In this document: piece by piece, positions 4,445 through 52,529 of the stretch | Layout of the letters: every line of letters begins with the position of its first letter | How positions within the stretch are numbered: position 1 is the stretch's first letter | NCBI GenBank assembly: GCA_964592785.1 | Contig: CAZQHU010000004.1 | Coordinates: forward strand, 72 to 64,071 | Length of the DNA stretch: 64,000 bases | DNA from: an uncultured Gammaproteobacteria bacterium | Lineage (GTDB): Bacteria > Patescibacteriota > Patescibacteriia > Magasanikbacterales > UBA922 | Direction: 5' to 3' | The notes under the pieces: model-generated | The model's input: the letters and a program-made list of their open reading frames with translations, nothing else | Databases searched by the model: none | What the model was told of the DNA's origin: nothing | Made by a program: the position numbers and the translations under genes

Positions 4445-4570
4445 GAGGAGTGTCTCCGACCCGCAGGTCGGAGACGAGGTGTGTTACCGTTGTTTTCAGT
4501 TCTTACCACTGTTACACACCCCACCTCCCCGCTGAATTGGCGGGTCGGCACCCCTCTCAAGAGGGGATTA
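4430..4570. other. GC-rich block of four consecutive hairpins, a candidate structured RNA or complex terminator
   Basis: Hairpins GTCTCCGACC/GGTCGGAGAC, GGTGTGTTAC/GTTACACACC, CCGC-TGAATTG-GCGG and CCCCTCT/AGAGGGG in an AT-rich context. The pth stop codon lies inside the CTCCTCTTGAGAGGAG palindrome. Confidence 0.35.
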
Positions 4571-4579
4571 CAAATATCA

Positions 4580-4607
4580 AAAAATCCGCTGATAAAGCGG
4601 ATTTTAA
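4580..4607. terminator. Bidirectional terminator hairpin between convergent genes
   Basis: AAAAAATCCGCT-GATAA-AGCGGATTTTAAT. Confidence 0.45.
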
Positions 4608-4623
4608 TATGTATTTTATTCTT

Positions 4624-5213: not shown

Positions 5214-6293
5214 ATGAAAAAAGAAATTCTCTTCTCCTACTTCCCCAAAAACACTGTCAAACGCTACCAAGAACTGGTGGCGGTTTTTGATAATCTAGAA
5301 AACGCTTGGAATACAAGTATTGAAGACCTAATTAAAATCGGCTGGGAAGAAAAATTGGCACAAGAATTTACTGACTGGAAAAATAAAATTGACGAAGAAA
5401 AAATTGCCAAAGTCTTGCAACAAGAAAATATACATTGCCTCACCAGAGATGATGAAGCTTATCCAGCCAGTCTAAAAGAACTTTATGATCCACCTTTTTG
5501 TCTTTTTGTCCGAGGTAAACTACCAAAAGATGGATTCAATCTGGCAGTGGTCGGAACGCGAAAATATACTACCTATGGCAAACAAGTGACTGAAGAATTG
5601 GTCACTGAACTTACCCAAAATGGTCTAAATATTATTTCTGGCCTAGCTCTGGGGATTGATGGTATCGCTCACGAAACTTGTTTACAAAATAATGGAAAAA
5701 CTGTTGCTATTCTTGGTACAGGAATAAATAATAACCACATCTACCCAAGTATACACAAAAATCTTGCCAATAGAATTATTGAAAACAATGGCGCGCTTAT
5801 TTCTGAATATCCGCCCGGGGCTCTGCCTTCCAAATTTGGTTTTCCCAAAAGAAATAGAATTATTGCCGGGCTTTCGCTTGGTGTCCTCGTCACCGAGGCA
5901 CCCGAAGACTCTGGGGCGCTCATCACCGCTCAAGTAGCCAATGACCTGGGGCGAGAAGTATTTGCTGTTCCTCATGCCCTTACTTCACCCAATGCCACTG
6001 GCACCAATAACTTAATAAAAAACGGCGCCCACCTGATAAACTCTGCCAAAGATATTTTGGAAATTTTAAATTTACAAGAGATCAAACAATTTATCGGCAA
6101 TCGCCAGATTTTACCCGACTCTCCTACTGAGGCCAAACTTCTGGAACATCTCGGTAAAGAACCTCACCATGTGGATGAAATAATCAAACTTACACAACTT
6201 GACAGCCCTACTGTAAATGCTACACTTACTATGATGGAAATGAAGGGAAAGGTGAGAAATCTTGGAGGAATGATGTATATTCTTGGTAAGTGA
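5214..6293 (+). CDS. dprA: DNA processing protein DprA/Smf
   Basis: Rossmann-like DprA core (VVGTRKYTTYG...GLALGIDGIAH...GSLITA-like) and a C-terminal winged-helix region. Confidence 0.85.
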   Translation: MKKEILFSYFPKNTVKRYQELVAVFDNLENAWNTSIEDLIKIGWEEKLAQEFTDWKNKIDEEKIAKVLQQENIHCLTRDDEAYPASLKELYDPPFCLFVRGKLPKDGFNLAVVGTRKYTTYGKQVTEELVTELTQNGLNIISGLALGIDGIAHETCLQNNGKTVAILGTGINNNHIYPSIHKNLANRIIENNGALISEYPPGALPSKFGFPKRNRIIAGLSLGVLVTEAPEDSGALITAQVANDLGREVFAVPHALTSPNATGTNNLIKNGAHLINSAKDILEILNLQEIKQFIGNRQILPDSPTEAKLLEHLGKEPHHVDEIIKLTQLDSPTVNATLTMMEMKGKVRNLGGMMYILGK

Positions 6294-6713
6294 GTAAGTT
6301 TGTAAGTGTATAAGTTTATAAGTATGTCATTAGTAAAAAACTGGACTGATCTCAATGCCTGGAAAAAAGCTCATCAACTAGTAATTGAAATTTATAAAAT
6401 AACAAAAACTTACCCTAAAGATGAACTTTATGCTTTAATTTCACAAATTCGACGTGCCTCTGTATCTGTAGCGGCCAACATAACAGAAGGTTTTCATCGA
6501 GAAACTAAAAAAGATAGATTACATTTTTATACAATGGCTTCAACTTCATTAGAAGAAGTAAAATATCATATAATTCTATCAAAAGACTTAGAATATATAG
6601 ATGTAAACAAAGCAAGAGAAATTTATTCTTTAGCAAATGAAGTTGGTAGACTACTCAGACGTTGGATGCAAACCCAAAAATAACTTACTCACTTACAAAC
6701 TTACATACTTAAT
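6286..6713. mobile_element. Cassette bounded by inverted GTAAGT/ACTTAC repeat arms and carrying a four-helix-bundle gene
   Basis: Left arm TAAGTGAGTAAGTTTGTAAGTGTATAAGTTTATAAGT (6286-6323). Right arm CTTACTCACTTACAAACTTACATACTTAAT (6684-6713). The arms share the 15-mer GTAAGTTTGTAAGTG in inverted orientation. Confidence 0.4.
6306..6683 (+). CDS. Four-helix-bundle protein (23S rRNA intervening-sequence protein / Avd-like family)
   Basis: ELYALISQIRRASVSVAANITEGF motif typical of TIGR02436/PF05635. The ATG at 6324 is more likely the start than the GTG at 6306. Confidence 0.75.
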   Translation: MYKFISMSLVKNWTDLNAWKKAHQLVIEIYKITKTYPKDELYALISQIRRASVSVAANITEGFHRETKKDRLHFYTMASTSLEEVKYHIILSKDLEYIDVNKAREIYSLANEVGRLLRRWMQTQK

Positions 6714-6724
6714 AACTATACCCT

Positions 6725-7424: not shown

Positions 7425-8810
7425 GTGGCTCAGTTTATGACACATGCACAAGCCCAAAAATTCATCCTTTCCTGGACCAAACTAGGAAGAAAAGAATACC
7501 TAAAAGACCCCAAAAAATGCGGTGTTTATCTTCAGCGTCTGCAATATTTTCTTGATTTAATTGGCAATCCGGAAAAACAAATCCCTCATTATATCCATGT
7601 CACTGGCACCAGTGGCAAAGGTTCAGTGTGTTTGATGCTAGATTCAATCTTACGTGCGGACAAACGAAAAGTAGGAACCATGACTTCTCCAGAAATTGGA
7701 CCCACTCAAACTCGTTGGCAAATAAACGGCCAAAAAATGACTGATAAAGAACTAGCAGAGATTATTACTAAATTAAAACCAAAGCTGGATCTATATTTAA
7801 AAACTTCACCCTACGATCCTATCTCACATTTTGAACTCATGACTGCCATCGGACTTTATTGGTTCGCGCAAAAAAAAGTAAAGTGGTGTATTTTGGAAGT
7901 AGGACTCGGTGGACGGTATGACTCAACTAATATAATTCCCCATAAAGATATTGCTGTCATTACTAATATCGGACTGGATCATACGGAAATACTAGGAAAA
8001 ACCAAAGCCAAGATTGCTTATGAAAAAGCAGGAATTATTAAGCCGGGATGTAAAGTATTCACCAATGAACAAAATAAAAAACTATTAAAAATATTTGAAA
8101 AAGAAATTACAAAAAACAAAACAAATACTAAACAAATACTCAAATTATCATGCCAAAAAAACTTACAAACTTACAAACTTACAAACTTACAAACTATTTT
8201 TAAATATCAAAACCATACTTACAATTTAAATACACTTGGGGAACATCAAGTTGGCAATGCTATTCTCGCAATTGAAATAACTAAATCACTCAAAATCCCC
8301 TACTCAACTATTAAACGTGGTTTAGAAAAAGTAAAACTACCACTGCGCATGGAGATAATTTCCAAAAATCCGCTGATAATTCTTGATGGCGCCCATAATC
8401 CTGATAAAATGAAAACGACAGTAGAAACAGTGCGTAAGTTAATAAGTATGCAAGTGAGTAAGTATAAAGAAAAATCACACTTACACACCTATACACTTAT
8501 ACACTTACTCACTGGATTTTCTGCTGACAAAGACCTAAAAACAATGTGTCAACAACTAAAAACCCTAAACCCAAAAACAATCGCCATCACCAAATTCACC
8601 TCCCCTTTCAAAAAATCTGCCAAACCAAAAGATATTGAAAAATTGGCTAAAAAATATTTCAAAAATACCAAAATCAAAATTTTTAGCAACCCTCAAACCG
8701 CTTATACCACTACAAAAAATAAACTCAAAAAAAATGATCTATTATTGGTCACTGGTTCACTATATTTGAGTGGTGAAATTCGCGCTAAATTGACAAAAGC
8801 AAAAAAATGA
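7425..8810 (+). CDS. folC: Folylpolyglutamate synthase / dihydrofolate synthase (Mur-ligase family), with two in-frame repeat insertions
   Basis: Motifs HVTGTSGKGS, EVGLGGRYDSTN, ITNIGLDHTEILG and DGAHNP. Start is GTG 7425 or ATG 7437. Confidence 0.75.
   Translation: MAQFMTHAQAQKFILSWTKLGRKEYLKDPKKCGVYLQRLQYFLDLIGNPEKQIPHYIHVTGTSGKGSVCLMLDSILRADKRKVGTMTSPEIGPTQTRWQINGQKMTDKELAEIITKLKPKLDLYLKTSPYDPISHFELMTAIGLYWFAQKKVKWCILEVGLGGRYDSTNIIPHKDIAVITNIGLDHTEILGKTKAKIAYEKAGIIKPGCKVFTNEQNKKLLKIFEKEITKNKTNTKQILKLSCQKNLQTYKLTNLQTIFKYQNHTYNLNTLGEHQVGNAILAIEITKSLKIPYSTIKRGLEKVKLPLRMEIISKNPLIILDGAHNPDKMKTTVETVRKLISMQVSKYKEKSHLHTYTLIHLLTGFSADKDLKTMCQQLKTLNPKTIAITKFTSPFKKSAKPKDIEKLAKKYFKNTKIKIFSNPQTAYTTTKNKLKKNDLLLVTGSLYLSGEIRAKLTKAKK
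8161..8194 (+). repeat. Tandem octamer (ACTTACAA)x4, in-frame within folC
   Basis: Direct reading. It encodes LQTYKLTNLQT. Confidence 0.7.
8430..8514. repeat. Palindromic GTAAGT-type element inserted in-frame in folC
   Basis: Left arm GTGCGTAAGTTAATAAGTATGCAAGTGAGTAAGTATAAAG. Right arm CACTTACACACCTATACACTTATACACTTACTCAC, which is the inverted complement of GTGAGTAAGT(G/A)TATAAG. Confidence 0.5.
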
Positions 8811-16912: not shown

Positions 16913-17617
16913 TCAAAATTTTTCCACTTTTATATCTGTAAAAACTTTACTCTGTTTCAAAATTATTTCCCGATTCTTGACCAATTCCAGTAAAGCCAAA
17001 AAAGTAATAATCACTTCTGTACGGTTAGCTGTATTATTTAAAATTTCTGAAAAACTAAAGCTCTTGGTTTTTTTTAATAAACTGGAAATATTTTTTATTT
17101 TCTCTTCCAAAAGCACGGTTTTGTCAATACTGGTTTGAGGTAAGGGTTTGGGAGGTTGTAAACGATGCAATAATTTTCTTAAACTTTCTTCCAAAGCAGT
17201 AAAAGACAAATCTTTGGGAGGAACAAAAGTTTCTGGCCGACGCGGTGGTTCTATTCTAAAAATTGATTTTTTCTGGCTCAACCAACTATGATCCAATTTT
17301 TTGGCTGTCTCTACAAACATTTTATAAAGACGTAGCTGTTCTTCCAAACTCGGACTTTCTTCTTCCTCAGGAGCAAACTGGGGTAAAAGATTTTTTGATT
17401 TCAAAAGTAACAAACGAGCCGCTACTACCAAAAAATCTGCCAATTCCTCAGGATTTTTATTTTCAATTTTTTCCAAATAATTCAAAAACTGTTCAGTGAC
17501 AGCCGAAAGTGAAACCTCACTAATATTTAATTTCTCTTCATCAATTAGAGACAAAAGTAAATCTAGTGGTCCAGAAAATTGTTCCAGTTGAAAATCTTTC
17601 ATGTTTTTAAATGTCAT
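16913..17617 (-). CDS. scpA: Segregation and condensation protein A
   Basis: ScpA N-terminal signature FSGPLDLLLSLIDEEKLNISEVSL. Confidence 0.85.
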   Translation of the reverse strand: MTFKNMKDFQLEQFSGPLDLLLSLIDEEKLNISEVSLSAVTEQFLNYLEKIENKNPEELADFLVVAARLLLLKSKNLLPQFAPEEEESPSLEEQLRLYKMFVETAKKLDHSWLSQKKSIFRIEPPRRPETFVPPKDLSFTALEESLRKLLHRLQPPKPLPQTSIDKTVLLEEKIKNISSLLKKTKSFSFSEILNNTANRTEVIITFLALLELVKNREIILKQSKVFTDIKVEKF

Positions 17618-17700
17618 TCCTGCGAAAGCAGGAATCTAATACTACCAGCGAGACCCCTGCTTCCGCAGGGGTGACACACTACTTTAGTGGCAACTTCGCT
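17613..17700. repeat. GTCATTCC-family short palindromic element; the scpA ATG lies inside its terminal GGAATGACA
   Basis: TGTCATTCCTGCGAAAGCAGGAATC hairpin with GAAA loop, plus a second hairpin CCCCTGC-TTCC-GCAGGGG. Near-identical to the copy at 30641. Confidence 0.5.
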
Positions 17701-18026
17701 TGTCTCTCCTCAAGCAAATTTTGGCTAATCTTAGCTCCTTTTTTTGTTAAACTAATATGTGTTATGAACCATTTGTGGGGTGTTCTCTTGCCATATCCGG
17801 TAAGTAATTCTCGGTCAATCAGATGTTCCAAACTCTTGGTAATAATACTTTCCTGATATTTATCCTGAGCGACTCGCTCCGAGTCAAGCCGAGAGGAGCC
17901 GAAGGATTTATCTTTGGCTGGGTCAAAAACTTTATGATAAAAATTTCGAAATATTTTTCGATCAAGTTTGTTGCCTTTTTGCAAACACTCCAACAAGATA
18001 TACTTTTGGAGCGTGCTTAATTTCAT
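17679..18026 (-). CDS. Hypothetical protein (C-terminus runs into the repeat)
   Basis: ORF only. The true 3' end is uncertain. Confidence 0.35.
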   Translation of the reverse strand: MKLSTLQKYILLECLQKGNKLDRKIFRNFYHKVFDPAKDKSFGSSRLDSERVAQDKYQESIITKSLEHLIDRELLTGYGKRTPHKWFITHISLTKKGAKISQNLLEERQAKLPLK

Positions 18027-19463: not shown

Positions 19464-19524
19464 AAATAAACCTAAAATAAGTTAGAAATATAGTAATATT
19501 TTAGCAAAAATAATTAATTTTGGC

Positions 19525-19572
19525 AATAAAAATGGAAGACCCCCGTCCTGACGTGAAGTCGGAACGAGGGTC
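19525..19572 (-). terminator. Intrinsic terminator for the GC-rich ORF
   Basis: Hairpin AGACCCCCGTCC..GGAACGAGGGTCT followed by TCCATTTTTATT when read on the minus strand. Confidence 0.45.
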
Positions 19573-19634
19573 TATTTTACACCTCCCTTTTGAAAACCAA
19601 ATGATCAGATATCGAACAAATTTTCACTTTCCTA

Positions 19635-20615: not shown

Positions 20616-20645
20616 AAAAAAATCGCTTAATTAAGCGATTTTTTT
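20616..20645. terminator. Perfect 30-nt palindrome; bidirectional terminator after rsmB
   Basis: AAAAAAATCGCTTAATTAAGCGATTTTTTT. A candidate promoter TTGACA-17-TAATTT on the minus strand at about 20560-20592 would drive the GC-rich ORF. Confidence 0.5.
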
Positions 20646-20668
20646 AATAATTTCCCAATTTCCTAATT

Positions 20669-21745
20669 CTATAATTTCTTCAATTTCACCACAAAAAATC
20701 CTTCAATCTCCTTTGTCGGCATTATCCGCAAAGCTTTTTTCTGTACATCTTTATTTACTTCTTTATTCTTCCAGTTTTTAACGACTGACAGACGTTTCAT
20801 TTCTCCCAAATCAATATCAAGTAAACTACAATCTGGATTGCGTTCCATAAATTTTGTTATCTGCAATTCATTTTCTTCCGGGGAAAAAGTGCAAGTAGAA
20901 TACACTAGTGTTCCGCCGGGCTTAAGCGCGCTCCAGGCGGCGAGAAGAAGCTGCCACTGTTTATATGCCATTTCTTTTATTTTTTGTTCTTTCCAATAAC
21001 CATAAGTTTTAGAATCACCCTCTATAAATCTCGCTTCGGCACTGCACGGTGCGTCAAGAAGAATTTTATCAAAATATTCTGGGTACTCACGGGTCAAAGC
21101 TGCACCGTGTTCCATGCGGAGGATAAATTGCCAGTCGTCATTCTGAGCGGATCCGCCTATTGGCGGAGGAGTCGAAGAATCCCATTCATCTTCGACGAGA
21201 TCCTTCGACTGTGTCCCTTTGGGACTTTGCTCAGGATGACGGAATACTCCCAACACTTCCATATTGTGTTTCAGTTTGAAAAAACGAATCTTATTATTGT
21301 CATTCGCCACTAATTCCCCTGTTCCGCCCATCAACGCTGCAATTTGCGAAGTTTTACTACCTGGAGCAGCTGTGAGATCCAAAACCTTCTCCCCTGGCTG
21401 AGGATCCAATATCAATGGTGGCACCATACTGGCCAAACTTTGGATATAAATTTTACCTTCTTTGTAAATTTCCAAATCTGTCAATTCACGTTTTGATTTA
21501 TTTTTTAAAATGAAAGCATCTTTGTACCAAAGTACTCGTTCAAATTTAAAACCATTTTGATTTAAAATTTCTATTATATCTTCCTTTTTTGTTTTCAAAG
21601 TATTAATTCTAAAAGTTGTCGGTCGTTCTGTAAAAGTTGATTGTATTTGAATAGATAAAGAAGAACCCACAATTTCAGTGAGTCTTTCTAAAAATCTTTT
21701 GGGAATACCAGATAGTTGTTTTCTATTTTTCTTCATATAGAACAC
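20669..21745 (-). CDS. RNA cytosine-C5 methyltransferase (RsmB/RsmF/NOP2-Sun family) carrying an in-frame element insertion
   Basis: Motif IV DAPCS, motif VI VYSTCT, and the AdoMet-binding DLTAAPGSKT. Confidence 0.8.
   Translation of the reverse strand: MFYMKKNRKQLSGIPKRFLERLTEIVGSSLSIQIQSTFTERPTTFRINTLKTKKEDIIEILNQNGFKFERVLWYKDAFILKNKSKRELTDLEIYKEGKIYIQSLASMVPPLILDPQPGEKVLDLTAAPGSKTSQIAALMGGTGELVANDNNKIRFFKLKHNMEVLGVFRHPEQSPKGTQSKDLVEDEWDSSTPPPIGGSAQNDDWQFILRMEHGAALTREYPEYFDKILLDAPCSAEARFIEGDSKTYGYWKEQKIKEMAYKQWQLLLAAWSALKPGGTLVYSTCTFSPEENELQITKFMERNPDCSLLDIDLGEMKRLSVVKNWKNKEVNKDVQKKALRIMPTKEIEGFFVVKLKKL
21137..21240. mobile_element. GTCATTC-family palindromic element inserted in-frame in the methyltransferase CDS
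   Basis: TIRs GTCATTCTGAGC and GCTCAGGATGAC (11 of 12 positions complementary). Internal CCGCCTATTGGCGG, GATCCTTCGACT and TCAGGATGACG are identical to the intergenic copies at 29233 and 47341. The segment is locally GC-rich and the ORF reads through. Confidence 0.55.
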
Positions 21746-21819
21746 AGATTTAACGAATTTAACGGATACAAACGAATCTGTTAAAATTCGTTCAATCCGT
21801 TTAATTCGTGTTCTATAAT

Positions 21820-29232: not shown

Positions 29233-29362
29233 CAAAAACCGCCTATTGGCGGTTTTATTAATTTCTTAATTTCCTAGTTTTTAAATTTCTTCGTTACTGC
29301 AAAGGGATCCTTCGACTTCATTCGGCTAACGTCTCACTCCGTTCAGGATGACGCTCCCCTCG
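29233..29362. repeat. Family-B palindromic element / composite 3' module directly after the secY stop codon
   Basis: CCGCCTATTGGCGG terminator hairpin, AATTTCTTAATTTCC, GGGATCCTTCGACT, CATTCGGCTAACG, and TCAGGATGACGCTCCCCTCGTC. The same motif order occurs at 47341 and inside rsmB. Confidence 0.5.
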
Positions 29363-30640: not shown

Positions 30641-30740
30641 TTGTCATTCCCGCGAAAGCAGGAATCTAATTAAATATTTCTGGATCGTTGTCTTGCACCA
30701 CCACTAAAGTCTTAGCAATACACGATCACAGGGATGACAA
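30641..30740. repeat. GTCATTCC-family MITE-like element between rplO and secY
   Basis: TIRs TTGTCATTCCCG and CAGGGATGACAA. Internal GAAA-loop hairpin CATTCCCGCGAAAGCAGGAATC. Its terminus GGAATGACAA lies 9 nt upstream of the secY ATG. Confidence 0.6.
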
Positions 30741-43808: not shown

Positions 43809-45341
43809 AAAGGAGGTGATCCATCCCCAGCTTCCGCTAGGGATGCCTTGTTACGACTTCACCCTGATCACTGACCCTGCCTTAGTCCCCATAAGGAGCC
43901 TTTGGGCGTTGCCAGCTTTCGTGGTGTGACGGGCGGTGAGTACAAGACCCGAGAACGTATTCACCGCGCCGTATCTGATGCGCGGTTACTAGCGAATCCA
44001 ACTTCATGAGGACGAATTTCAGCCCTCAATCCGAACTGAGGCTAGCTTTTTGGGATTAGCTCCATCTCGCGATTTAGCAACCCTTTGTACTAGCCATTGT
44101 ATCATGCGTGTAGCCCTGGACGTAAGAGCCATGCTGATTTGACGTCGTCCCCGCCTTCCTCCCGTTTAAACGGGCAGTCTCGTGTGTACATTTAACACAC
44201 AATAGGGGTTGCGCTCGTTACCAGACTTAACTGTACACCTCACGGCACGAGCTGACGGCAACCATGCAGCACCTATCTAACACCTTCGAAAGCGGGCAAT
44301 GTTTCCATCGCCTTGCAGTTAGTAGTTGAGCCCAGGTAAGGTTCGCCGCGTACCGTCGAATTAAACCGCATGATCCTCCGCTTGTGCGGGTCCCCGTCTA
44401 TTCCTTTGAGTTTTAACCTTGCGGCCGTACTCCCCAGGCGGTGTACTTAACGCGTTTGCTTTTTAAAACGGCACTGAGAGGGTCGATACTCCCAATACCT
44501 AGTACACATCGTTTAGGGCGTGGACTACTAGGGTATCTAATCCTATTCGCTACCCACGCTTTGGTCCATGAGTGTCAGGCATGTTATAGCAAGCTGCCTT
44601 CGCCTTTGGTGTTCCTATCGATATCAGCGCTTATTACGACTACACCGATAGTTCCGCTTGCCTCTCCCAGCCTCCAGTCTGATAGTATCAACAGCAGTCC
44701 CGGAGTTAAGCCCCGGGATTTAACCATTGACTTTTCAGACAACCTGCGGACGCTTTACGCCCAATGAATCCGGATAACGTTTGAGGTCTCTGTATTACCG
44801 CTGCTGCTGGCACAGAGTTAGCAACCTCTTATTCCTAGGGTACCGTCACAAATTCGTCCCCTATAAAAGCAGTTTACACCCCGAAGGGCTTCATCCTGCA
44901 CGCGGCGTCGCTCCATCAGACTTTCGTCCATTGTGGAATATTCTTGACTGCAGCCTCCCGTAGGAGTCTGGGCAGTATCTCAGTCCCAGTGAGGCAGGTC
45001 ACGCTCTCACGCCTGCTACCCGTCATAGCCTTGGTGGTCTATTACACCGCCAACTAGCTGATAGGACATAGGCCTTTCTCCAAGTGATAAATCTTTAAAT
45101 GCGAATGACTTTTGTCCCCGCATTGCCATCGGGTATTAATCCACCTTTCGGTGGGCTATCCCCGTCTTGGAGGTAAGTTACCAATGTGTTACTCACCCGT
45201 TTGCCGCTCGTAACCCGTCCAACACTCTACCAACATTTATAAAAAATATTTTTAGAGTGTTGGTCGGGCACGTCGCTCGACTTGCATGCCTTAAACACGC
45301 CGCCAACGTTCATCCTGAGCCAGGATCAAACTCTCAGTAAA
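43809..45341 (-). rRNA. rrs: 16S ribosomal RNA, about 1.53 kb, not linked to a 23S
   Basis: 5' end GAGTTTGATCCTGGCTCAG (rc at 45315-45334). 3' end GGATCACCTCCTTT (rc at 43809-43822). Internal universal segments such as GTGCCAGCAGCCGCGGTAATAC (rc at about 44790) are present. Confidence 0.9.
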
Positions 45342-47340: not shown

Positions 47341-47437
47341 AATCAACCCGCCTCATCGGCGGGTTTTGAATTTCTCAATTTCTTAGTTTCTTTTAAAACC
47401 ACGGGATCCTTCGTTTCACTCAGGATGACGCTACGCG
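47341..47437. repeat. Family-B composite element directly after the fusA stop codon
   Basis: CCCGCCTCATCGGCGGG terminator hairpin, AATTTCTCAATTTCTTAG, GGGATCCTTCGTTTCACTCAGGATGACGCTACGCGTC. Confidence 0.5.
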
Positions 47438-49513
47438 TCACTTCTTCCCTTCAGCAATCTGTGCCTCAATATTTTTTGGCACATCTGCATAATGATCAAA
47501 TTCCATAGCATAAGTAGCCCGGCCCTGTGACATGGAGCGTAAATCTGTAGCATAACCAAACATTTCTGAAAGAGGAACCATGGCGCGCACCACTTTGGCA
47601 GTACCACGCTGAGTCATCTCCAAAATCTGTCCGCGTTTGGAATTAAGATTGCCGATCACATCACCCATGTATTCTTCTGGAGTGGTCACTTCTACTTTCA
47701 TTACTGGTTCCAAAACTACAGGACTAGCTTTTTTGGCAGCCTCTTGAAAGGCCATAATACCAGCCATTTTGAAAGCGATTTCTGAAGAGTCAACTTCATG
47801 GTAAGAACCATCAAAAACAGTCACTTGCAAATCCACCACTGGGAAACCAGCTACCACACCTTTATCAATTGCTTCTTTCACGCCTTTTTGAATGGCTGGA
47901 ATATATTCGCGAGGAATAACACCACCTTTGACTTCATCAATAAATTCAAATCCTTGTCCACGTTCACGAGGTTCAAGTTTGAGATAGCAATGACCATATT
48001 GACCGCGTCCACCAGACTGTTTGATGTATTTACCTTCAGCTTCGGCACTCTGGCGAATAGTCTCTTTATAAGCTACTTGTGGCTTACCAACTTTGGCCTC
48101 CACTTTAAATTCACGCTTCATGCGATCCACAATGATTTCCAAATGCAATTCACCCATACCAGAAATAATAGTCTGTAATGTTTCTTGATCAGTATGAACT
48201 CGAAAAGTCGGATCTTCTTCAGCCAACTTTTGTAAAGCCAAGCTCATCTTCTCAGCATCAGCTTTGGTGTTTGGTTCAATGGCAATATCAATCACTGGTT
48301 CAGGGAAAACAATTTTTTCCAAAAGTACCGGACGATTTTCTGCGCAAAGAGTATCTCCAGTAGTGGTAGATTTAAGTCCTACTGCCGCAGCAATCTCTCC
48401 AGCATAAACTTCATTTACATCTTCTCGATGATTGGCATGAAGTCTAACAATACGACTAATACGTTCTTTTTCTCCATTGGAAGTATTGATTACATAGCTA
48501 CCAGCAGTCAAAACACCGGAATAAACTCGAAAAAAAGCCAACTTTCCCACAAAAGGATCAGTGGCTATTTTGAAAGCCAAAGCAGTAAAAGGAGCACTGT
48601 CATCAGCTTTAACAATTATTTCTTTGGTTTCATCATTAGGATCATGAGCTTTGATATCTGGCACATCCAGAGGTGAAGGTAAGAAGTAAGTGACAGCATC
48701 CAACACCAACTGCACCCCCATATTTTGCAAAGCTGAACCACACATTACAGGGTACATCTCATCTTGCAAAACCAAAGCGCGAATGCCAGACTTTATTTCA
48801 ACTTCAGTAAATTCTCCACCATTTAAATATTTATTCATGAGTTCATCATTAGCTTCAGCCACTTTTTCCAACAATTGAGCCCGATAAGTTTGAGCTCTTT
48901 CCAATTCTTCAGCTGGAATTTCCATTTCCACGATATTTTCACCGCTCTTACCTTCAAATTTATAAGCTTTCATTTTGATAAGATCAATGATCCCGGAAAA
49001 AGAAGATTCAGCCCCGATTGATAATTGAATAGCAAAAGCTTTGGGGGATAATCTTTCTTTAATGGAATTTAAACTCATATAAAAATCCGCACCCATCTTG
49101 TCCATTTTATTGACAAAACAAATTCTTGGCACGCGATATTTATCAGCTTGACGCCAAACTGTTTCAGATTGTGGCTCCACACCTTGGGAACCATCAAAAA
49201 CAGCTACTGCGCCATCGAGTACGCGCAAAGATCTTTCTACTTCCACAGTAAAGTCCACGTGGCCGGGAGTGTCAATAAGATTGATACGATGATCTTTCCA
49301 AAAACAAGTGGTGGCAGCTGAAGTAATAGTGATACCACGTTCTTTTTCTTGTTCCATCCAATCCATTTCAGCGGCTCCTTCATGTACTTCACCAATCTTA
49401 TGTTTCTTACCAGTATAAAAAAGAATACGTTCTGAAACAGTAGTCTTACCGGCATCAATATGAGCGGCAATACCAATGTTCCTGGTTTTGTCTAATGAAT
49501 ATTCACGAGGCAT
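47438..49513 (-). CDS. fusA: Elongation factor G
   Basis: [17 protein letters not shown]. Start at [15 protein letters not shown] (49513) matches orthologues. The upstream ATG at 49525 lies inside the repeat terminus. Confidence 0.9.
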
Positions 49514-49520
49514 AAGTTTA

Positions 49521-49646
49521 TTCATTCCGAGCGTAGCGAGGAATCTTTCTCACCTCGTACATATCGGAGTGTTTAGTTATTGATTTAAAAAAGTTTGTAA
49601 TAGGAAAGATTCCTCACCCTCGCTTGAACTCGGGTTCGGAATGAAC
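49521..49646. repeat. GTCATTCC-family MITE/REP-like element filling the rpsG-fusA spacer
   Basis: TIRs TTCATTCCGAGCGTAGCGAGGAATCTTTC and GAAAGATTCCTCACCCTCGC...CGGAATGAAC, with a central GATTTAAAAAAGTTT. Its terminus CGGAATGAATAAACTT lies immediately 5' of the fusA ATG. Confidence 0.6.
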
Positions 49647-50120
49647 CTACCGACGAGCGAAGTGAGCAAAAGCTTTGTTGGCTTCAGCCATGCGCACCAC
49701 ATCTTCTTTTTTCTTCATCGCGCCACCGGTTCCTGCCAAAACATCCAACATTTCACTAGAAAGTTTTTCAATCATGTTTTGACCTTTACGTTCACGCGCA
49801 GCACCAATAATCCAACGAAAGGCCAAAGCATTTTGACGCTCTGCTGGTACTGGCATTGGCACTTGGTAGTTCGCGCCACCGACACGACGAGAGCGGACTT
49901 CAACTGAAGGCCTGACTGTGTCCATCACTTGTTCAAATAAAACTACAGCATCAGCTTTTTTAACTTCTTGAAGTTTTTCCAAAGCACCATAAACAATTTC
50001 TTGAGCTCGGGTCTTTTTTCCGCTTTCCATGATCATGTTAATAAATTTGGCCAACAAAACACTATTATATTTTGGTTCTGGAGCCAAAACTCTTTTTGGT
50101 ACACTTTTTCCTCTAGGCAT
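49647..50120 (-). CDS. rpsG: 30S ribosomal protein S7
   Basis: MPRGKSVPKRVLAPEPKYNS signature. Confidence 0.9.
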   Translation of the reverse strand: MPRGKSVPKRVLAPEPKYNSVLLAKFINMIMESGKKTRAQEIVYGALEKLQEVKKADAVVLFEQVMDTVRPSVEVRSRRVGGANYQVPMPVPAERQNALAFRWIIGAARERKGQNMIEKLSSEMLDVLAGTGGAMKKKEDVVRMAEANKAFAHFARR

Positions 50121-50128
50121 ATAGTTCG

Positions 50129-50262
50129 TTCATTCCGAGCGTAGCGAGGAATCCTTCTTGCCTCGAACGTAGTCGGAATGTTTATTTTATGATTTAAAAA
50201 AGTTTTAATTTAAGAAAGATTCCTCGTTTAGTCCGTGCGAACGGACTCACTCGGAATGAACC
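50129..50262. repeat. GTCATTCC-family MITE/REP-like element filling the rpsL-rpsG spacer
   Basis: Near-identical to 49521-49646: TTCATTCCGAGCGTAGCGAGGAATCC...GAAAGATTCCTCG...CTCGGAATGAAC. Its terminus lies 9 nt upstream of the rpsG ATG. Confidence 0.6.
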
Positions 50263-50267
50263 TAAAA

Positions 50268-50693
50268 TTATTTACCAGCTTTCGGTCTCTTGGCTCCGTA
50301 GATAGAACGACCTTTACGACGGGCTTCTACACCCTGGGTGTCATAAACACCGCGAACAATATGATAACGAACACCTGGCAAGTCTTTTACACGGCCACCG
50401 CGAATAAGCACAATAGAGTGCTCTTGAAGATTGTGTCCTTCACCAGGAATATAAGCGATTACTTCCAAACCATTGCTAAGTCTAACCTTGGCGACTTTAC
50501 GCAAAGCTGAGTTTGGTTTCTTTGGAGTAGTGGTATAAACCTTGGTACAAACTCCACGTTTAAATGGGCAACCGCGACGCAAAGTGGTCTTGGCGCGATG
50601 CAAACTATCGTAGGTAAATTGCAAAGCCGGTGACTTGGATTTCACTGTCTTTGGATGTCTTCCCTTACGAATGATTTGATTCATTGTAGGCAT
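50268..50693 (-). CDS. rpsL: 30S ribosomal protein S12
   Basis: [12 protein letters not shown]...[11 protein letters not shown] signature. Confidence 0.95.
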
Positions 50694-50699
50694 AAGATT

Positions 50700-50817
50700 T
50701 ATTCATTCCGAACGAAGTGAGGAATCTTTTCCAACACGTACGTTCTTAAATAAAATTAAATAAAATAAAATTATTTTTTCTTAATAAAGATCTCTCACCC
50801 TTTGGGCTCGAGATGAA
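50700..50817. repeat. Degenerate third copy of the GTCATTCC-family element upstream of rpsL
   Basis: TTCATTCCGAACGAAGTGAGGAATC...GATCTCTCACCC...CTCGAGATGAAC. Confidence 0.45.
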
Positions 50818-51009
50818 CAAAAAAACGTCCTTTAAAGACGCTAGAAAAAACTATTTTTTCAAACGTCTGCACCTCTTCGGCGCACATTCACCTTGTCCGC
50901 CATAATAGCGGGGGTTACTACGTTGACCACATTCTACAACAAAGCCAAAAACTTGTCAAGTCCCACCCGCAACGCCTGAGCAAGCTCATGCTTACGATGG
51001 CGGGCCGGC

Positions 51010-51038
51010 TTGACAAAATCCAATAAATGTACTATACT
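51010..51038 (+). promoter_or_regulatory. Candidate promoter TTGACA-17-TATACT for the lipoprotein gene
   Basis: Consensus hexamers with 17-nt spacing about 100 nt upstream of the ATG. Confidence 0.35.
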
Positions 51039-51140
51039 TATCAGTCATTACTGTGTCTGTCTTGGACACGATTGACAATCTAGGCACTGGCAGGAAGCCA
51101 GGCTAGTGAATTCATTTCACGGAAGTGAGGAGGAAACACA

Positions 51141-51653
51141 ATGATCCGCATCATCTTGGCCATGACCATGATCCTGTCCCTGGCCGCCTGCAACGACGAC
51201 ATCAAGGCCGAGCTGGCCCAGACCAAGGCCGATCTGGCTCGGGTCCAGTCGGATCTCAACCAGGTGGTCGAGTACCACCGCCTGACCCAGGCGATCCAGG
51301 AGGAGACCATGCTCCTCCAGGATCTGCGCGAACAGACCCAGACTCTGAACAAGGACCTGGACTCCCTGGCCAATCGCGCCATCCTGGCACGGTCAGCACT
51401 GCCTGCGCAGGCCTACCTCTGTAAGGGCAACCGTTCTTGCGAGGAAGAGACGGCAGCCAAGGCCAAGATCGAGGCTGTGAAGATGAATGAGGAAGTCGAC
51501 ACCCTCAATGCCCGATCCAAGCAACTGGGCGAGGAGACCAGCCTCCACATCACTCGACACAAGCAGGCGGAGACGGCCATGAAGGTCGCACGGGCGGCGC
51601 TCCCACCCGATCTGCAAGAACGCCTCCTCGGAGTAAGGGAGTCTTCCCACTAG
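51141..51653 (+). CDS. Coiled-coil lipoprotein encoded in a strongly GC-rich foreign island
   Basis: Signal peptide with lipobox LSLAAC. Strong RBS GAGGAGGAAACACA-ATG. GC content is far above the background. Overlapping antisense ORFs are artefacts of high GC. Confidence 0.6.
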   Translation: MIRIILAMTMILSLAACNDDIKAELAQTKADLARVQSDLNQVVEYHRLTQAIQEETMLLQDLREQTQTLNKDLDSLANRAILARSALPAQAYLCKGNRSCEEETAAKAKIEAVKMNEEVDTLNARSKQLGEETSLHITRHKQAETAMKVARAALPPDLQERLLGVRESSH

Positions 51654-51772
51654 CTCTTTCGCCGTGACGACATACAGTGTCTCTCTGTACCCCGACCCAG
51701 TCGGGAACGCCAGAGGACCCGTGTCACTCACGGCTCACCCTCTATATTTTTCACGAAGAATATTGAGGATAA

Positions 51773-51804
51773 TAAAAAATTCACCTCATCGGTGAATTTT
51801 TTAT
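51773..51804. terminator. Bidirectional intrinsic terminator
   Basis: AAAAAATTCACC-TCATCG-GTGAATTTTTTATTTC. Confidence 0.55.
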
Positions 51805-51832
51805 TTCTGTGTAATCTGTTATTAATCAGTGT

Positions 51833-52450
51833 TTAAAAATACACTCCCCCACCCGTAAACAAACTAGTAAGGAAATAAATAATCGGCTGAATAAAACGAA
51901 AGCCAAAAAATATAAAAGCTATTAAAATTACAAAACCATATTGTTCCAGCATCATTTTGATCTTATACTGGGAATCGGGTAACAAAGCATAAAGCAACTT
52001 GGAACCATCAAGTGGTGGAATCGGCACAAGATTGAATACTGCCAAAAGCACATTGGCATAAACAATAATATAAAGAAAAACTGTCATGTTGGAAATAGGT
52101 AAATAACGAACCAAGAGCCCAAAAACAAAAGCCAATGTCAAATTACTAAGTGGACCGGCTAGAGCCACCCACACCGGTCCCCATTTTTGATCTTTCAAAT
52201 TGTAAGGATTGTAGGGCACTGGCTTGGCATAGGCAAAAAGAAACCTCCCGGCTGTGAAAAAAAATAACAATAGTGGCATTATGATGGTGCCCCATTTATC
52301 TATATGAGCTCGTGGATCCATGGTCAACCGTCCAGCATAGCGCGCTGTCGGATCACCCAGCATATCTGCCATCCAACCATGAGAATACTCATGAATAATG
52401 GAGGAAGGAATAATAACAACGAGAAAAAATAATAAGGGTAAAAAATCCAT
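51833..52450 (-). CDS. Peptidase M50 (site-2 protease-like) membrane metalloprotease
   Basis: HEYSHG (HExxH) in the first TM helix; polytopic. Confidence 0.7.
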   Translation of the reverse strand: MDFLPLLFFLVVIIPSSIIHEYSHGWMADMLGDPTARYAGRLTMDPRAHIDKWGTIIMPLLLFFFTAGRFLFAYAKPVPYNPYNLKDQKWGPVWVALAGPLSNLTLAFVFGLLVRYLPISNMTVFLYIIVYANVLLAVFNLVPIPPLDGSKLLYALLPDSQYKIKMMLEQYGFVILIAFIFFGFRFIQPIIYFLTSLFTGGGVYF

Positions 52451-52529
52451 AATTAGATTAAAATTGAAAAATTAATAAACTAAAAAATTTTAATTTCTTA
52501 ATTTTCCAATTTCCGAATTTCTCTGTATA

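Follow-up and report, generated by a model that had tools for sequence, protein, structure and literature searches.

Palindromic repeats filling the str operon spacers of a Candidatus Magasanikbacteria genome are probably selfish insertions of a widespread hairpin family

We analyzed a 64-kb stretch of DNA (contig CAZQHU010000004.1; hereafter the window) that carries the str operon genes rpsL, rpsG and fusA, and we focused on the palindromic elements that lie between them. The window presents a GC-content of about 37%, and the homologues of its S7 protein place it in the Candidate Phyla Radiation (CPR), among Candidatus Magasanikbacteria. Three elements, named here E1, E2 and E3 (Table 1), had been described in an initial annotation as being essentially the spacers themselves. 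This description was borne out: they measure 117-134 bp and make up nearly all of both intergenic spacers as well as the last 117 bp before rpsL. E1 begins right behind the rpsG stop codon (TAG followed directly by GTTCATTCC) and E2 lies 6 nt from the rpsL stop codon. The longest open reading frame (ORF) of fusA starts with an ATG at 49525, which falls inside E1; the true start of the gene is the ATG at 49513.

The first two copies had been called near-identical, which did not hold: E1 and E2 are homologous and share 77% identity, and E3 is 62-64% identical to either of them. E1 and E2 have the same start-proximal arm, and conservation between them is highest over the 3' ~90 nt. An exact copy of the 24-nt arm TCATTCCGAGCGTAGCGAGGAATC is present at 49522 (E1) and at 50130 (E2) and a copy with two mismatches at 50703 (E3), and the arm was found in none of 100 shuffled controls. 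The sequence TCATTCCGA occurs five times, every time at an element end, for an expectation of 0.54. E2 additionally contains a degenerate third copy of the hairpin in its interior, and the distal arm of E3 has a compensated stem (ATCTC/GAGAT), with a distal loop that differs from that of strains L001 and L002 by a 7-nt indel and three substitutions. Two Logan assemblies, independent of each other and derived from the same strain, contain exact copies of E1 and E2, which excludes an assembly artefact. The contigs of these assemblies terminate at E1, as is expected where a repeat interrupts an assembly.

All three elements are predicted to fold into strong RNA structures, with z-scores of -4.2 for E1 (-41 kcal/mol), -8.2 for E2 (-53.1 kcal/mol) and -2.4 for E3. 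In these predicted folds the element ends pair into a long hairpin and the 6-8 nt before the start codon stay unpaired (the last 6 nt before the ATG for E1).

Table 1. Genes, hairpin elements and transcription signals discussed in the text (window coordinates; the last column counts the nucleotides between the last base of GGAATGA(A/C) and the ATG).
Feature	Position	Length (bp)	Strand	Description	Gap to ATG (nt)
rpsL (S12)	50268-50693		-	identity by Pfam	
rpsG (S7)	49647-50120		-	identity by Pfam	
fusA (EF-G)	47438-49513		-	identity by Pfam; true start is the ATG at 49513 (MPREYS...)	
E1	49521-49646	126	-	palindromic element filling the 133-nt rpsG-fusA spacer; arms 49608-49645 (hairpin with inserted GC-rich stem-loop) and 49521-49545 (TTCATTCCGAGCGTAGCGAGGAATC)	fusA, 7
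E2	50128-50261	134	-	palindromic element filling the 147-nt rpsL-rpsG spacer; arms 50218-50260 and 50129-50153	rpsG, 8
E3	50702-50818	117	-	between terminator-like hairpin and rpsL; 31% GC; distal arm 50789-50817, proximal arm 50702-50726	rpsL, 8
E4	30642-30739	98	-	rplO(L15)-secY spacer	secY, 8
E5	17612-17678	67	-	inverted doublet of two hairpins, before scpA	scpA, 10 (second ATG)
Inverted hairpin doublet, complete	21137-21240		-	within RsmB/F-type rRNA m5C methyltransferase ORF 20669-21745	
Solo hairpin GTCATCCTGAGTGAAACGAAGGATC	47405-47429		-	8 nt past fusA stop	
Solo hairpin GTCATCCTGA...GAAGGATC	29306-29352		-	enlarged loop; 10 nt past secY stop	
Sigma-70-type promoter TTGACA-17-TAGAAT	50959-50931		-	canonical; str operon upstream region	
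Terminator-like hairpin with T-run	50842-50824		-	~100 nt past promoter, immediately before E3	

All arms fit a single hairpin pattern, (G/T)TCAT-N3-GA-(stem-loop)-GA-N3'-ATC. The stem pairs vary within the window (TCC/GGA, CCT/AGG, CTC/GAG and CCCC/GGGG) yet stay complementary. When the pattern was applied to all fetched loci without any pairing requirement, 435 of 506 matches presented complementary N3 triplets, and 89 of these 435 carried triplets other than TCC, the one selected by our search patterns. Across 61 distinct 24-mers, 96.3% of the cells were paired and we counted 52 double-sided changes relative to 12 +/- 2.6 after shuffling (none of 500 shuffles reached the observed number, and a slid partner column gave at most 6). 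Because the search pattern prescribed the TCAT/ATC feet and the tandem G.A/A.G mismatch, their invariance in this alignment is no evidence; their constancy was seen in the unconstrained partner arms. Wobble pairs were evenly distributed between the strands (4 vs 4), a number too small to separate a role in RNA from a role in DNA.

E1 to E5 and the copy located within a coding sequence are all inverted doublets of this hairpin. The foot reads TG-TCAT in 112 of 129 genome copies among the matches listed and GT-TCAT in E1-E3. No target-site duplication was found, as inspection by eye revealed no direct repeat flanking E1-E5 or about 20 doublets from other phyla. E1-E3 are small, bounded by terminal inverted repeats and devoid of ORFs, as is typical of MITEs (miniature inverted-repeat transposable elements), and the earlier view of them as palindromic repeats similar to MITEs or to repetitive extragenic palindromes (REPs) is upheld.

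A pattern scan identified eight members of the family in the window, all of them in transcribed regions. E4 starts 3 nt past the L15 stop codon and reproduces before secY the arrangement seen in the str operon, as had been proposed; the hairpin nearest to the start codon (GTCATTCCCGCGAAAGCAGGAATC; 30643-30666) belongs to the Neisseria dRS3 type. E5 starts directly after the stop codon of ORF 17679-18026 and comprises the hairpins GTCATTCCTGCGAAAGCAGGAATC (17613-17636) and GTCACCCCTGCGGAAGCAGGGGTC on the minus strand. The scpA start codon had been placed inside this element: the first in-frame ATG (17617) does lie within the arm GGAATGACA, but an alternative ATG at 17602 (MKDFQLEQFSGPLDLLL) would leave the 10-nt gap given in Table 1. 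The Pfam model of ScpA begins only at residue 24 and both ATGs remain candidate starts. Related copies had also been noted after the secY and fusA stop codons, from 29233 and 47341 onwards. Solo hairpins are indeed present at both places, but these two positions begin at separate intrinsic terminators (29235-29256 and 47345-47365) that follow each hairpin after a stretch of GAAATT-type repeats. Finally, the doublet in the methyltransferase gene (GTCATCCTGAGC..GTCGAAGGATC, 17 nt, GATTCTTCGAC..GCTCAGAATGAC) is in frame and codes for residues ~169-204 (peptide FRHPEQSPKGTQSKDLVEDEWDSSTPPPIGGSAQNDD).

GAAATT-type heptamer repeats (e.g., AGGAAATTAAGAAATTAA) were observed at 20640-20668, 29258-29290, 47370-47395 and 52480-52525, in each case just upstream of an intrinsic terminator. 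Similar AATTG/GAATT heptamer runs adjoin the hairpins in other phyla (loci L030, L049 and L121) and occur in the str spacers of another low-GC contig, L203.

We compared the orthologous sites of related genomes. The closest relative found (L003; S7 86% identical) presents rpsL-rpsG and rpsG-fusA spacers of only 19 and 21 nt, which are AT-rich and contain neither an element nor a Shine-Dalgarno (SD) sequence. In a second relative (L005; S7 75% identical), the rpsL-rpsG spacer is empty (26 nt) and the 261-nt rpsG-fusA spacer contains other, GC-rich palindromes. In a third (L007; S7 78% identical), both spacers contain homologous elements and the junction after rpsG reads TAG-GTTCAT as in the window, and L203 carries the module before rpsL and unrelated heptamer repeats in both str spacers. 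The same variability was observed within the methyltransferase gene. Its product presents an insertion of ~38 residues exactly at the doublet relative to the solved homologues 1ixk and 3m6u, which align to residues 13-168 and 220-358 with ~13 residues of their own in between. Among the Magasanikbacteria orthologues, the site after KHNMEVLGV is either empty (P0134-P0136, 314-319 aa) or filled with differing inserts, and the insert peptides ..ARNDSW, CHCEE.. and ..VQNNDW are translations of the hairpin.

That orthologous sites carry the elements in some genomes and lack them in others, whether these sites lie between genes or inside them, indicates that the elements are insertions. Because the sites are empty in relatives, rpsG and fusA can be expressed without elements and do not need them. 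About 25 other ribosomal-protein genes of the window likewise start without any element. The comparison of orthologous spacers, with L003 and L005 lacking the element where L007 carries it, thereby speaks against the functional role first suggested. Away from the site after KHNMEVLGV, individual methyltransferase orthologues contain other short inserts, such as KNSFVIPDYTDTKKHYEPASG in P0137 and SQALLRQGYGG in P0129, and P0148 and P0149 have long inserts at the C-terminus. These proteins suggest that in-frame repeat insertion is common in the Magasanikbacteria lineage.

Several unrelated repeats were observed in the same genomes. A near-perfect 32-nt inverted repeat (TATAGAACAC..ATTTAACGGAT / ATTCGTT..GTGTTCTATA) at 21736-21817 fills the 74-nt spacer upstream of the methyltransferase gene and represents a palindromic element distinct from the TCAT-foot hairpins. 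Unrelated GC-rich palindromic hairpins occupy intergenic DNA at 4445-4623, 19464-19634 and 51654-51832 of the window and at 1975-2235 of L005, where they fill the rpsG-fusA spacer. The str spacers thus seem to be recurrent landing sites for several types of repeats. Elsewhere in the window, ORF 6306-6683 encodes a four-helix-bundle domain of the 23S-rRNA-intervening-sequence or bAvd-like type; it is bracketed by inverted ACTTACA/TGTAAGT heptamer runs (6278-6327 and 6677-6720), with more of these runs 1.5-2 kb away (8147-8205 and 8435-8515).

The elements had been reported to end 9-12 nt before the start codons. A nearly fixed offset was confirmed, but the gap is 7-10 nt if one counts the bases that separate the end of GGAATGA(A/C) from the ATG. 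Beyond the five genes of the window, other low-GC loci gave offsets of 9 nt (fusA of L007), 7 nt (rpsL of L203), 8 nt (dnaK of L242) and 10 nt (glmS of L155), and the rpsL-rpsG copy of L007, read by eye, adds a tenth case with 8 nt before rpsG. These ten cases correspond to about seven independent sites: rpsL, rpsG, fusA, secY, scpA, dnaK and glmS. Weak SD usage, also part of the initial annotation, is evident in the window: an SD-like motif precedes only 6 of 72 ORF starts, and the 16S tail is canonical. The spacers within operons are AT-rich and measure 1-33 nt. The elements occupy nearly all of the distance to the preceding stop codon or terminator, with 5' flanks of 0, 6, 3 and 0 nt in the window; in our reading, the original gaps thus measured about 7-15 nt, as is typical for this genome.

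The conservation of the GGAATGA box at a fixed distance had been taken as an argument for a function in translation initiation. This argument was not supported, on several grounds in addition to the empty spacers of L003 and the ribosomal-protein genes without element. The box is a terminal inverted repeat that stands at both ends of each element and also beside stop codons, and it is found in the coding-sequence copy and at more than 240 loci of many phyla without relation to start codons. We also rejected GGAATGA as an SD sequence: it is only weakly complementary, lies 12-15 nt from the ATG and is locked in a stem.

Upstream of rpsL, E3 is preceded by a canonical promoter and by a terminator-like hairpin (Table 1). 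No canonical promoter was detected inside E1 or E2, and E3 contains only a weak match (9/12). Because no comparable promoter lies inside E1-E3, the elements are probably co-transcribed within the str mRNA. The distal hairpin, although a T-rich tract comes after it, was not called as a terminator. The promoter-leader-terminator stretch at 50824-50959 may represent an unannotated small RNA or else a leader of the attenuator type for the str operon; Rfam yielded no match for this structured leader. Analogous arrangements of promoter, structured leader and terminator were observed upstream of rpsL in L203 (~2790-2960) and L005 (~740-915).

Further upstream, an 871-bp segment (50964-51834; ~56% GC) is absent from the near-identical strains L001 and L002, in which 51835 is joined directly to 50963. 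It presents its own TTGACA-17-TATACT promoter, a strong SD sequence and an ORF of 170 aa (51141-51653) whose product has a lipoprotein-type signal (MIRIILAMTMILSLAAC). The segment represents either foreign DNA inserted recently or a chimeric assembly. We considered this GC-rich segment as a source of transposase and rejected it, as it has no Pfam match and encodes the lipoprotein-like ORF.

We then extended the search beyond this lineage. The 23-nt pattern TCATTCCGAGYRNAGCGAGGAAT was found as an exact match at a minimum of 120 loci among the GTDB species genomes. Among the matches listed, the hosts comprise Acidobacteriota, Chloroflexota, Planctomycetota, Beta-, Gamma- and Deltaproteobacteria, Nitrospirales, Gemmatimonadaceae, Bacteroidota (Hymenobacter), Firmicutes (Ruminococcus, Tissierella), Armatimonadota, Verrucomicrobiota, CPR (Uhr- and Roizmanbacteria) and one Nanoarchaeota bin. 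The same pattern occurs in 28 viral contigs, and a second arm pattern in at least 120 metagenome contigs. The usual form elsewhere is TGTCATTCC-GA-..-GA-GGAATCT, followed after 20-40 nt by an inverted copy. For 48 of 129 genome hairpins among the matches listed, an inverted partner lay no more than 160 nt away (median spacer 29 nt, median unit 82 bp). Clustering the ORFs within 2.5 kb of 120 of the genome copies revealed no recurrent neighbour gene family; the clusters among the matches listed represent only common families (response regulators, thiolases, SDR and ABC proteins). Rfam returned no match to the elements at the gathering threshold for the whole window and 18 loci, and only generic hairpin (miRNA-precursor) matches at the E-value threshold for two regions. 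An Acido-Lenti-1 match in L117 was discarded, as it lies in unrelated sequence. In the literature, we found no paper printing the hairpin sequence (TCATTCCGAGCG, CGCTCGGAATGA, GTCATTCC) and nothing relevant linking CPR with MITEs.

The dRS3 repeat of Neisseria, ATTCCC-N8-GGGAAT, flanks RS units of 50-150 bp and serves as integration site of Nf phages, and the NIME arrays built from such units had not been seen outside Neisseria as of 2007 (PMC1797815). We found dRS3 with its outer feet (GTCATTCCC-N8-GGGAATC) to be abundant in viral contigs; it forms arrays on some contigs in which the Neisseria uptake sequence is also present. In the viral contigs the repeat reads (C/T)CGTCATTCCC..GGGAATC(T/C)A and shares the outer feet GTCAT...ATC(T/C)A with our hairpins. 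The window hairpin at 30643-30668 is a single base away from a common dRS3 variant with the loop GCGAAAGC; relative to the dRS3 consensus, 11 of 12 bases are matched at 30645-30664 and 10 of 12, with a compensated change, at 17616-17635. Based on this near-identity and on the shared feet, dRS3 looks like one branch of the TCAT-foot hairpin family. The arms of E1-E3, which read ATTCC-N11-GGAAT or longer, do not fit the dRS3 consensus.

The universal 5' end of 16S rRNA (GATCCTGGCTCAGGATGAAC), which is located at 45309-45327 of the window, also fits the hairpin pattern on the opposite strand (TTCAT-CCT-GA..AGG-ATC), and its arms are identical to those of the common GTCATCCTGAG..AGGATC subfamily. 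By chance, the loose pattern is expected about 3.5 times per window and about 0.005-0.08 times in a 16S gene, a post hoc estimate. This resemblance could be due to chance, or it could be a hint at the origin or the recognition of the hairpin family.

Elements of this kind have been described in several bacteria. To bind an E. coli REP, RAYT requires a 5' GTAG at the foot of the hairpin and a mid-stem mismatch (PMC3479197). As in the REP/REPIN-RAYT system, the elements are short imperfect hairpins with a fixed tetranucleotide at the 5' foot, a mid-stem mismatch and an otherwise co-varying stem (PMC3479197); they often form inverted doublets with a short spacer, which is the REPIN architecture (PMC3116915, PMC3337134), and they are intercistronic and probably co-transcribed, with no coding capacity and no target-site duplication. 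The hairpins at 30643-30666 and 17613-17636 are of the dRS3 type and resemble its 20-bp palindrome ATTCC(C)-N8-(G)GGAAT, and the elements share with dRS3 and NIME the outer feet, the AT-richer flanked units of 50-150 bp (PMC1797815) and the alternation in GC-content between hairpin and spacer. They differ from them in that E1-E3 have 5-bp arms and an interior of at least 11 nt with a tandem G.A mismatch instead of N8, that the window units (hairpin, AT-rich spacer, hairpin; 67-134 bp) are single rather than arrayed, and that the host is a CPR bacterium with ~37% GC.

In behavior, the doublet of the methyltransferase gene resembles RPE, the palindromic repeats of the reduced Rickettsia genome that are found between genes and, as in-frame insertions, within unrelated housekeeping genes (PMC10969869), as the orthologous site is empty or variably filled. 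RPE families are known from Rickettsia only and measure ~150 bp, relative to ~105 bp for the window copy. Correia elements are characterized by duplication of a TA target and by IHF and promoter motifs. Neither a duplication nor a promoter was detected in the window elements and the sequences are unrelated, but Correia and ERIC MITEs have in common with them the terminal inverted repeats, the position beside gene starts and ends, and the co-transcription that is probable for the window elements. The RNA hairpins of Correia (CREE) and ERIC are substrates of RNase III or RNase E that alter mRNA levels (PMC10969869). E1-E3 could, by analogy, act on the mRNA as stabilizers or RNase substrates of the REP, Correia or ERIC type.

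Our results suggest that E1-E3 and the related copies of the window are probably selfish, non-autonomous repeats of palindromic structure, of the kind represented by REP/REPIN, NIME or RPE. As a kind, such elements are known; what is new is the TCAT foot, the tandem G.A mismatch, the spread across phyla including dRS3 and the RPE-like behavior in a CPR genome. The mobile-looking unit would consist of two TCAT-foot hairpins inverted around an AT-rich spacer. Such units would have entered the very short (about 7-20 nt), AT-rich and SD-less spacers of highly expressed operons and, in one case, a surface loop of a coding sequence, and they would survive only where they are harmless, either in frame within a gene or with 7-10 unpaired bases left before the start codon. 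The apparently fixed distance to the ATG would result from this persistence of harmless copies only: in our reading, it reflects a constraint set by very short original spacers and by the need for about 7 free bases, as an element that landed less than about 7 nt away would hide the start region within a stem and would not be tolerated. The elements would then be part of the str transcript and form strong mRNA hairpins in it that the genes do not require. Their spread, by analogy with REP/RAYT, may depend on a nuclease or transposase that is supplied in trans and recognizes the hairpin in single-stranded DNA. This REP-like single-strand mechanism is what we infer from the fixed 5' tetranucleotide foot, the mid-stem mismatch, the inverted doublets and the lack of target-site duplications.

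Several observations weigh against this interpretation. The GTAG (or GTGG) foot that is the hallmark of REPs is absent, being replaced by (G/T)TCAT. Near-identical hairpins are found across phyla, unlike REPs, which are lineage-specific and inherited vertically with their RAYT, and one window copy lies within a gene. No RAYT and no transposase of any kind (Y1_Tnp or other) was detected with Pfam among 30 ORFs of the window, and none recurs near 120 of the genomic loci; no parent insertion sequence was seen near these loci either, although no dedicated search of an insertion-sequence database was made. In low-GC contigs, all nine hairpin ends with a gene start within 40 nt sit at 7-10 nt, with none at 0-6 or 11-40 nt. 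These include the solo hairpins before dnaK (L242) and glmS (L155), which leave 14 and 25 nt of spacer upstream. This clustering is tighter than a rule of at least 7 nt predicts, unless that upstream AT-rich DNA is itself a remnant of the element. Finally, the start-proximal ~45 nt (ACGTWCGWGG..GAAAGATTCCTCGCTACGCTCGGAATGAA) are far better conserved than the distal arm, among paralogues and among genomes, which could reflect selection on that part.

The offsets at about seven independent gene starts and the conservation of the start-proximal module are what one would expect if the elements were co-opted cis-acting RNA modules, in which the hairpin is kept at position -8 as it aids expression of the downstream gene in an SD-poor lineage. 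The module could be a processing site for RNase III, E or J, or a 5' stabilizer, giving rise to monocistronic mRNAs whose leader is short and unstructured, or it could offer a structural platform for loading of the 30S subunit; protection or attenuation of the upstream cistron would fall to the distal hairpin and its U-rich tract. In the predicted folds the leader bases ahead of the ATG are unpaired, none of the copies lies in the ~20 longer promoter-type intergenic regions of the window, and there is precedent in the cleavage of Correia inverted repeats by RNase III and in the effect of ERIC on mRNA decay (PMC10969869). We nevertheless consider co-option unlikely: the closest relative expresses these genes behind empty spacers of 19-21 nt, L203 fills the same spacers with unrelated heptamers, about 25 other ribosomal-protein genes of the window have no element, and hairpins also stand after stop codons and within a coding sequence. 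Moreover, GC-rich genomes show no relation to start codons (an ORF start lies within 40 nt of 38 of 334 ends, with offsets spread evenly over 0-40 nt), and the wobble pairs present no strand bias, although their counts are very small. Overall, the initial observation was confirmed and its interpretation partly supported; an RNA-level role in mRNA processing or translation is possible, and the evidence favors tolerated selfish insertions over an expression device.

The main alternative to a REP-like mode of spread is that the hairpins are recombination sites similar to dRS3, acted upon by an IS110/Piv-type or phage recombinase, with composites built by repeated recombination as in NIME. The integration of Nf phages into dRS3 and its position at the flanks of RS units, the viral contigs in which dRS3 shares our outer feet, the near-match at 30643-30668 and the mosaic, variable interior and distal loops are all consistent with such sites. 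Given that the window presents single units and no arrays, that the units recur as entire copies of 80-130 bp and that no recombinase gene was seen among the scanned window ORFs or the neighbours of the genomic loci, we find this quite improbable. An autoregulatory leader of ribosomal proteins or another curated structured RNA, such as an rRNA mimic bound by S7 or S12, would account for the position in the str leader and spacers and for the arm that resembles the 16S 5' end. It is hard to reconcile with the lack of an Rfam match at either threshold, with the presence of the module before secY, scpA, dnaK and glmS and in a methyltransferase gene, and with the absence of the element from the closest relative, and we regard it as most improbable. 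A more speculative combination, to which we give little weight, is that all TCAT-N3-GA...GA-N3'-ATC hairpins, dRS3 included, form one superfamily that is maintained or spread across phyla by a widely shared and unrecognized machinery, with additional recruitment of the start-proximal arm as a standard mRNA hairpin 7-10 nt before the starts of highly expressed genes in SD-poor CPR. This machinery could be a conserved single-strand DNA nuclease or recombinase of host or phage origin, or could rely on mimicry of the universal 16S 5' end.

The genomes of CPR/Patescibacteria are small and tightly packed, and repeats placed in the most conserved operon and in frame within genes imply that selfish DNA is active and tolerated in them. 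For genome analysis, the elements explain the assembly breaks around rpsG in these organisms, and in annotations they give rise to in-frame "domains" and to spurious short ORFs, with RFLASLGMT and EIPRFARNDK as examples of the encoded peptides. The dRS3 repeat had been thought to be specific to one genus; we find a 23-25-nt hairpin with compensatory changes that spans Acidobacteriota to Firmicutes and matches the dRS3 feet. If a common enzyme recognizes this hairpin, it would constitute a very widespread and undescribed system of mobile DNA, and if the -8 position reflects a function, it would bear on the organization of translation starts in bacteria without SD sequences.

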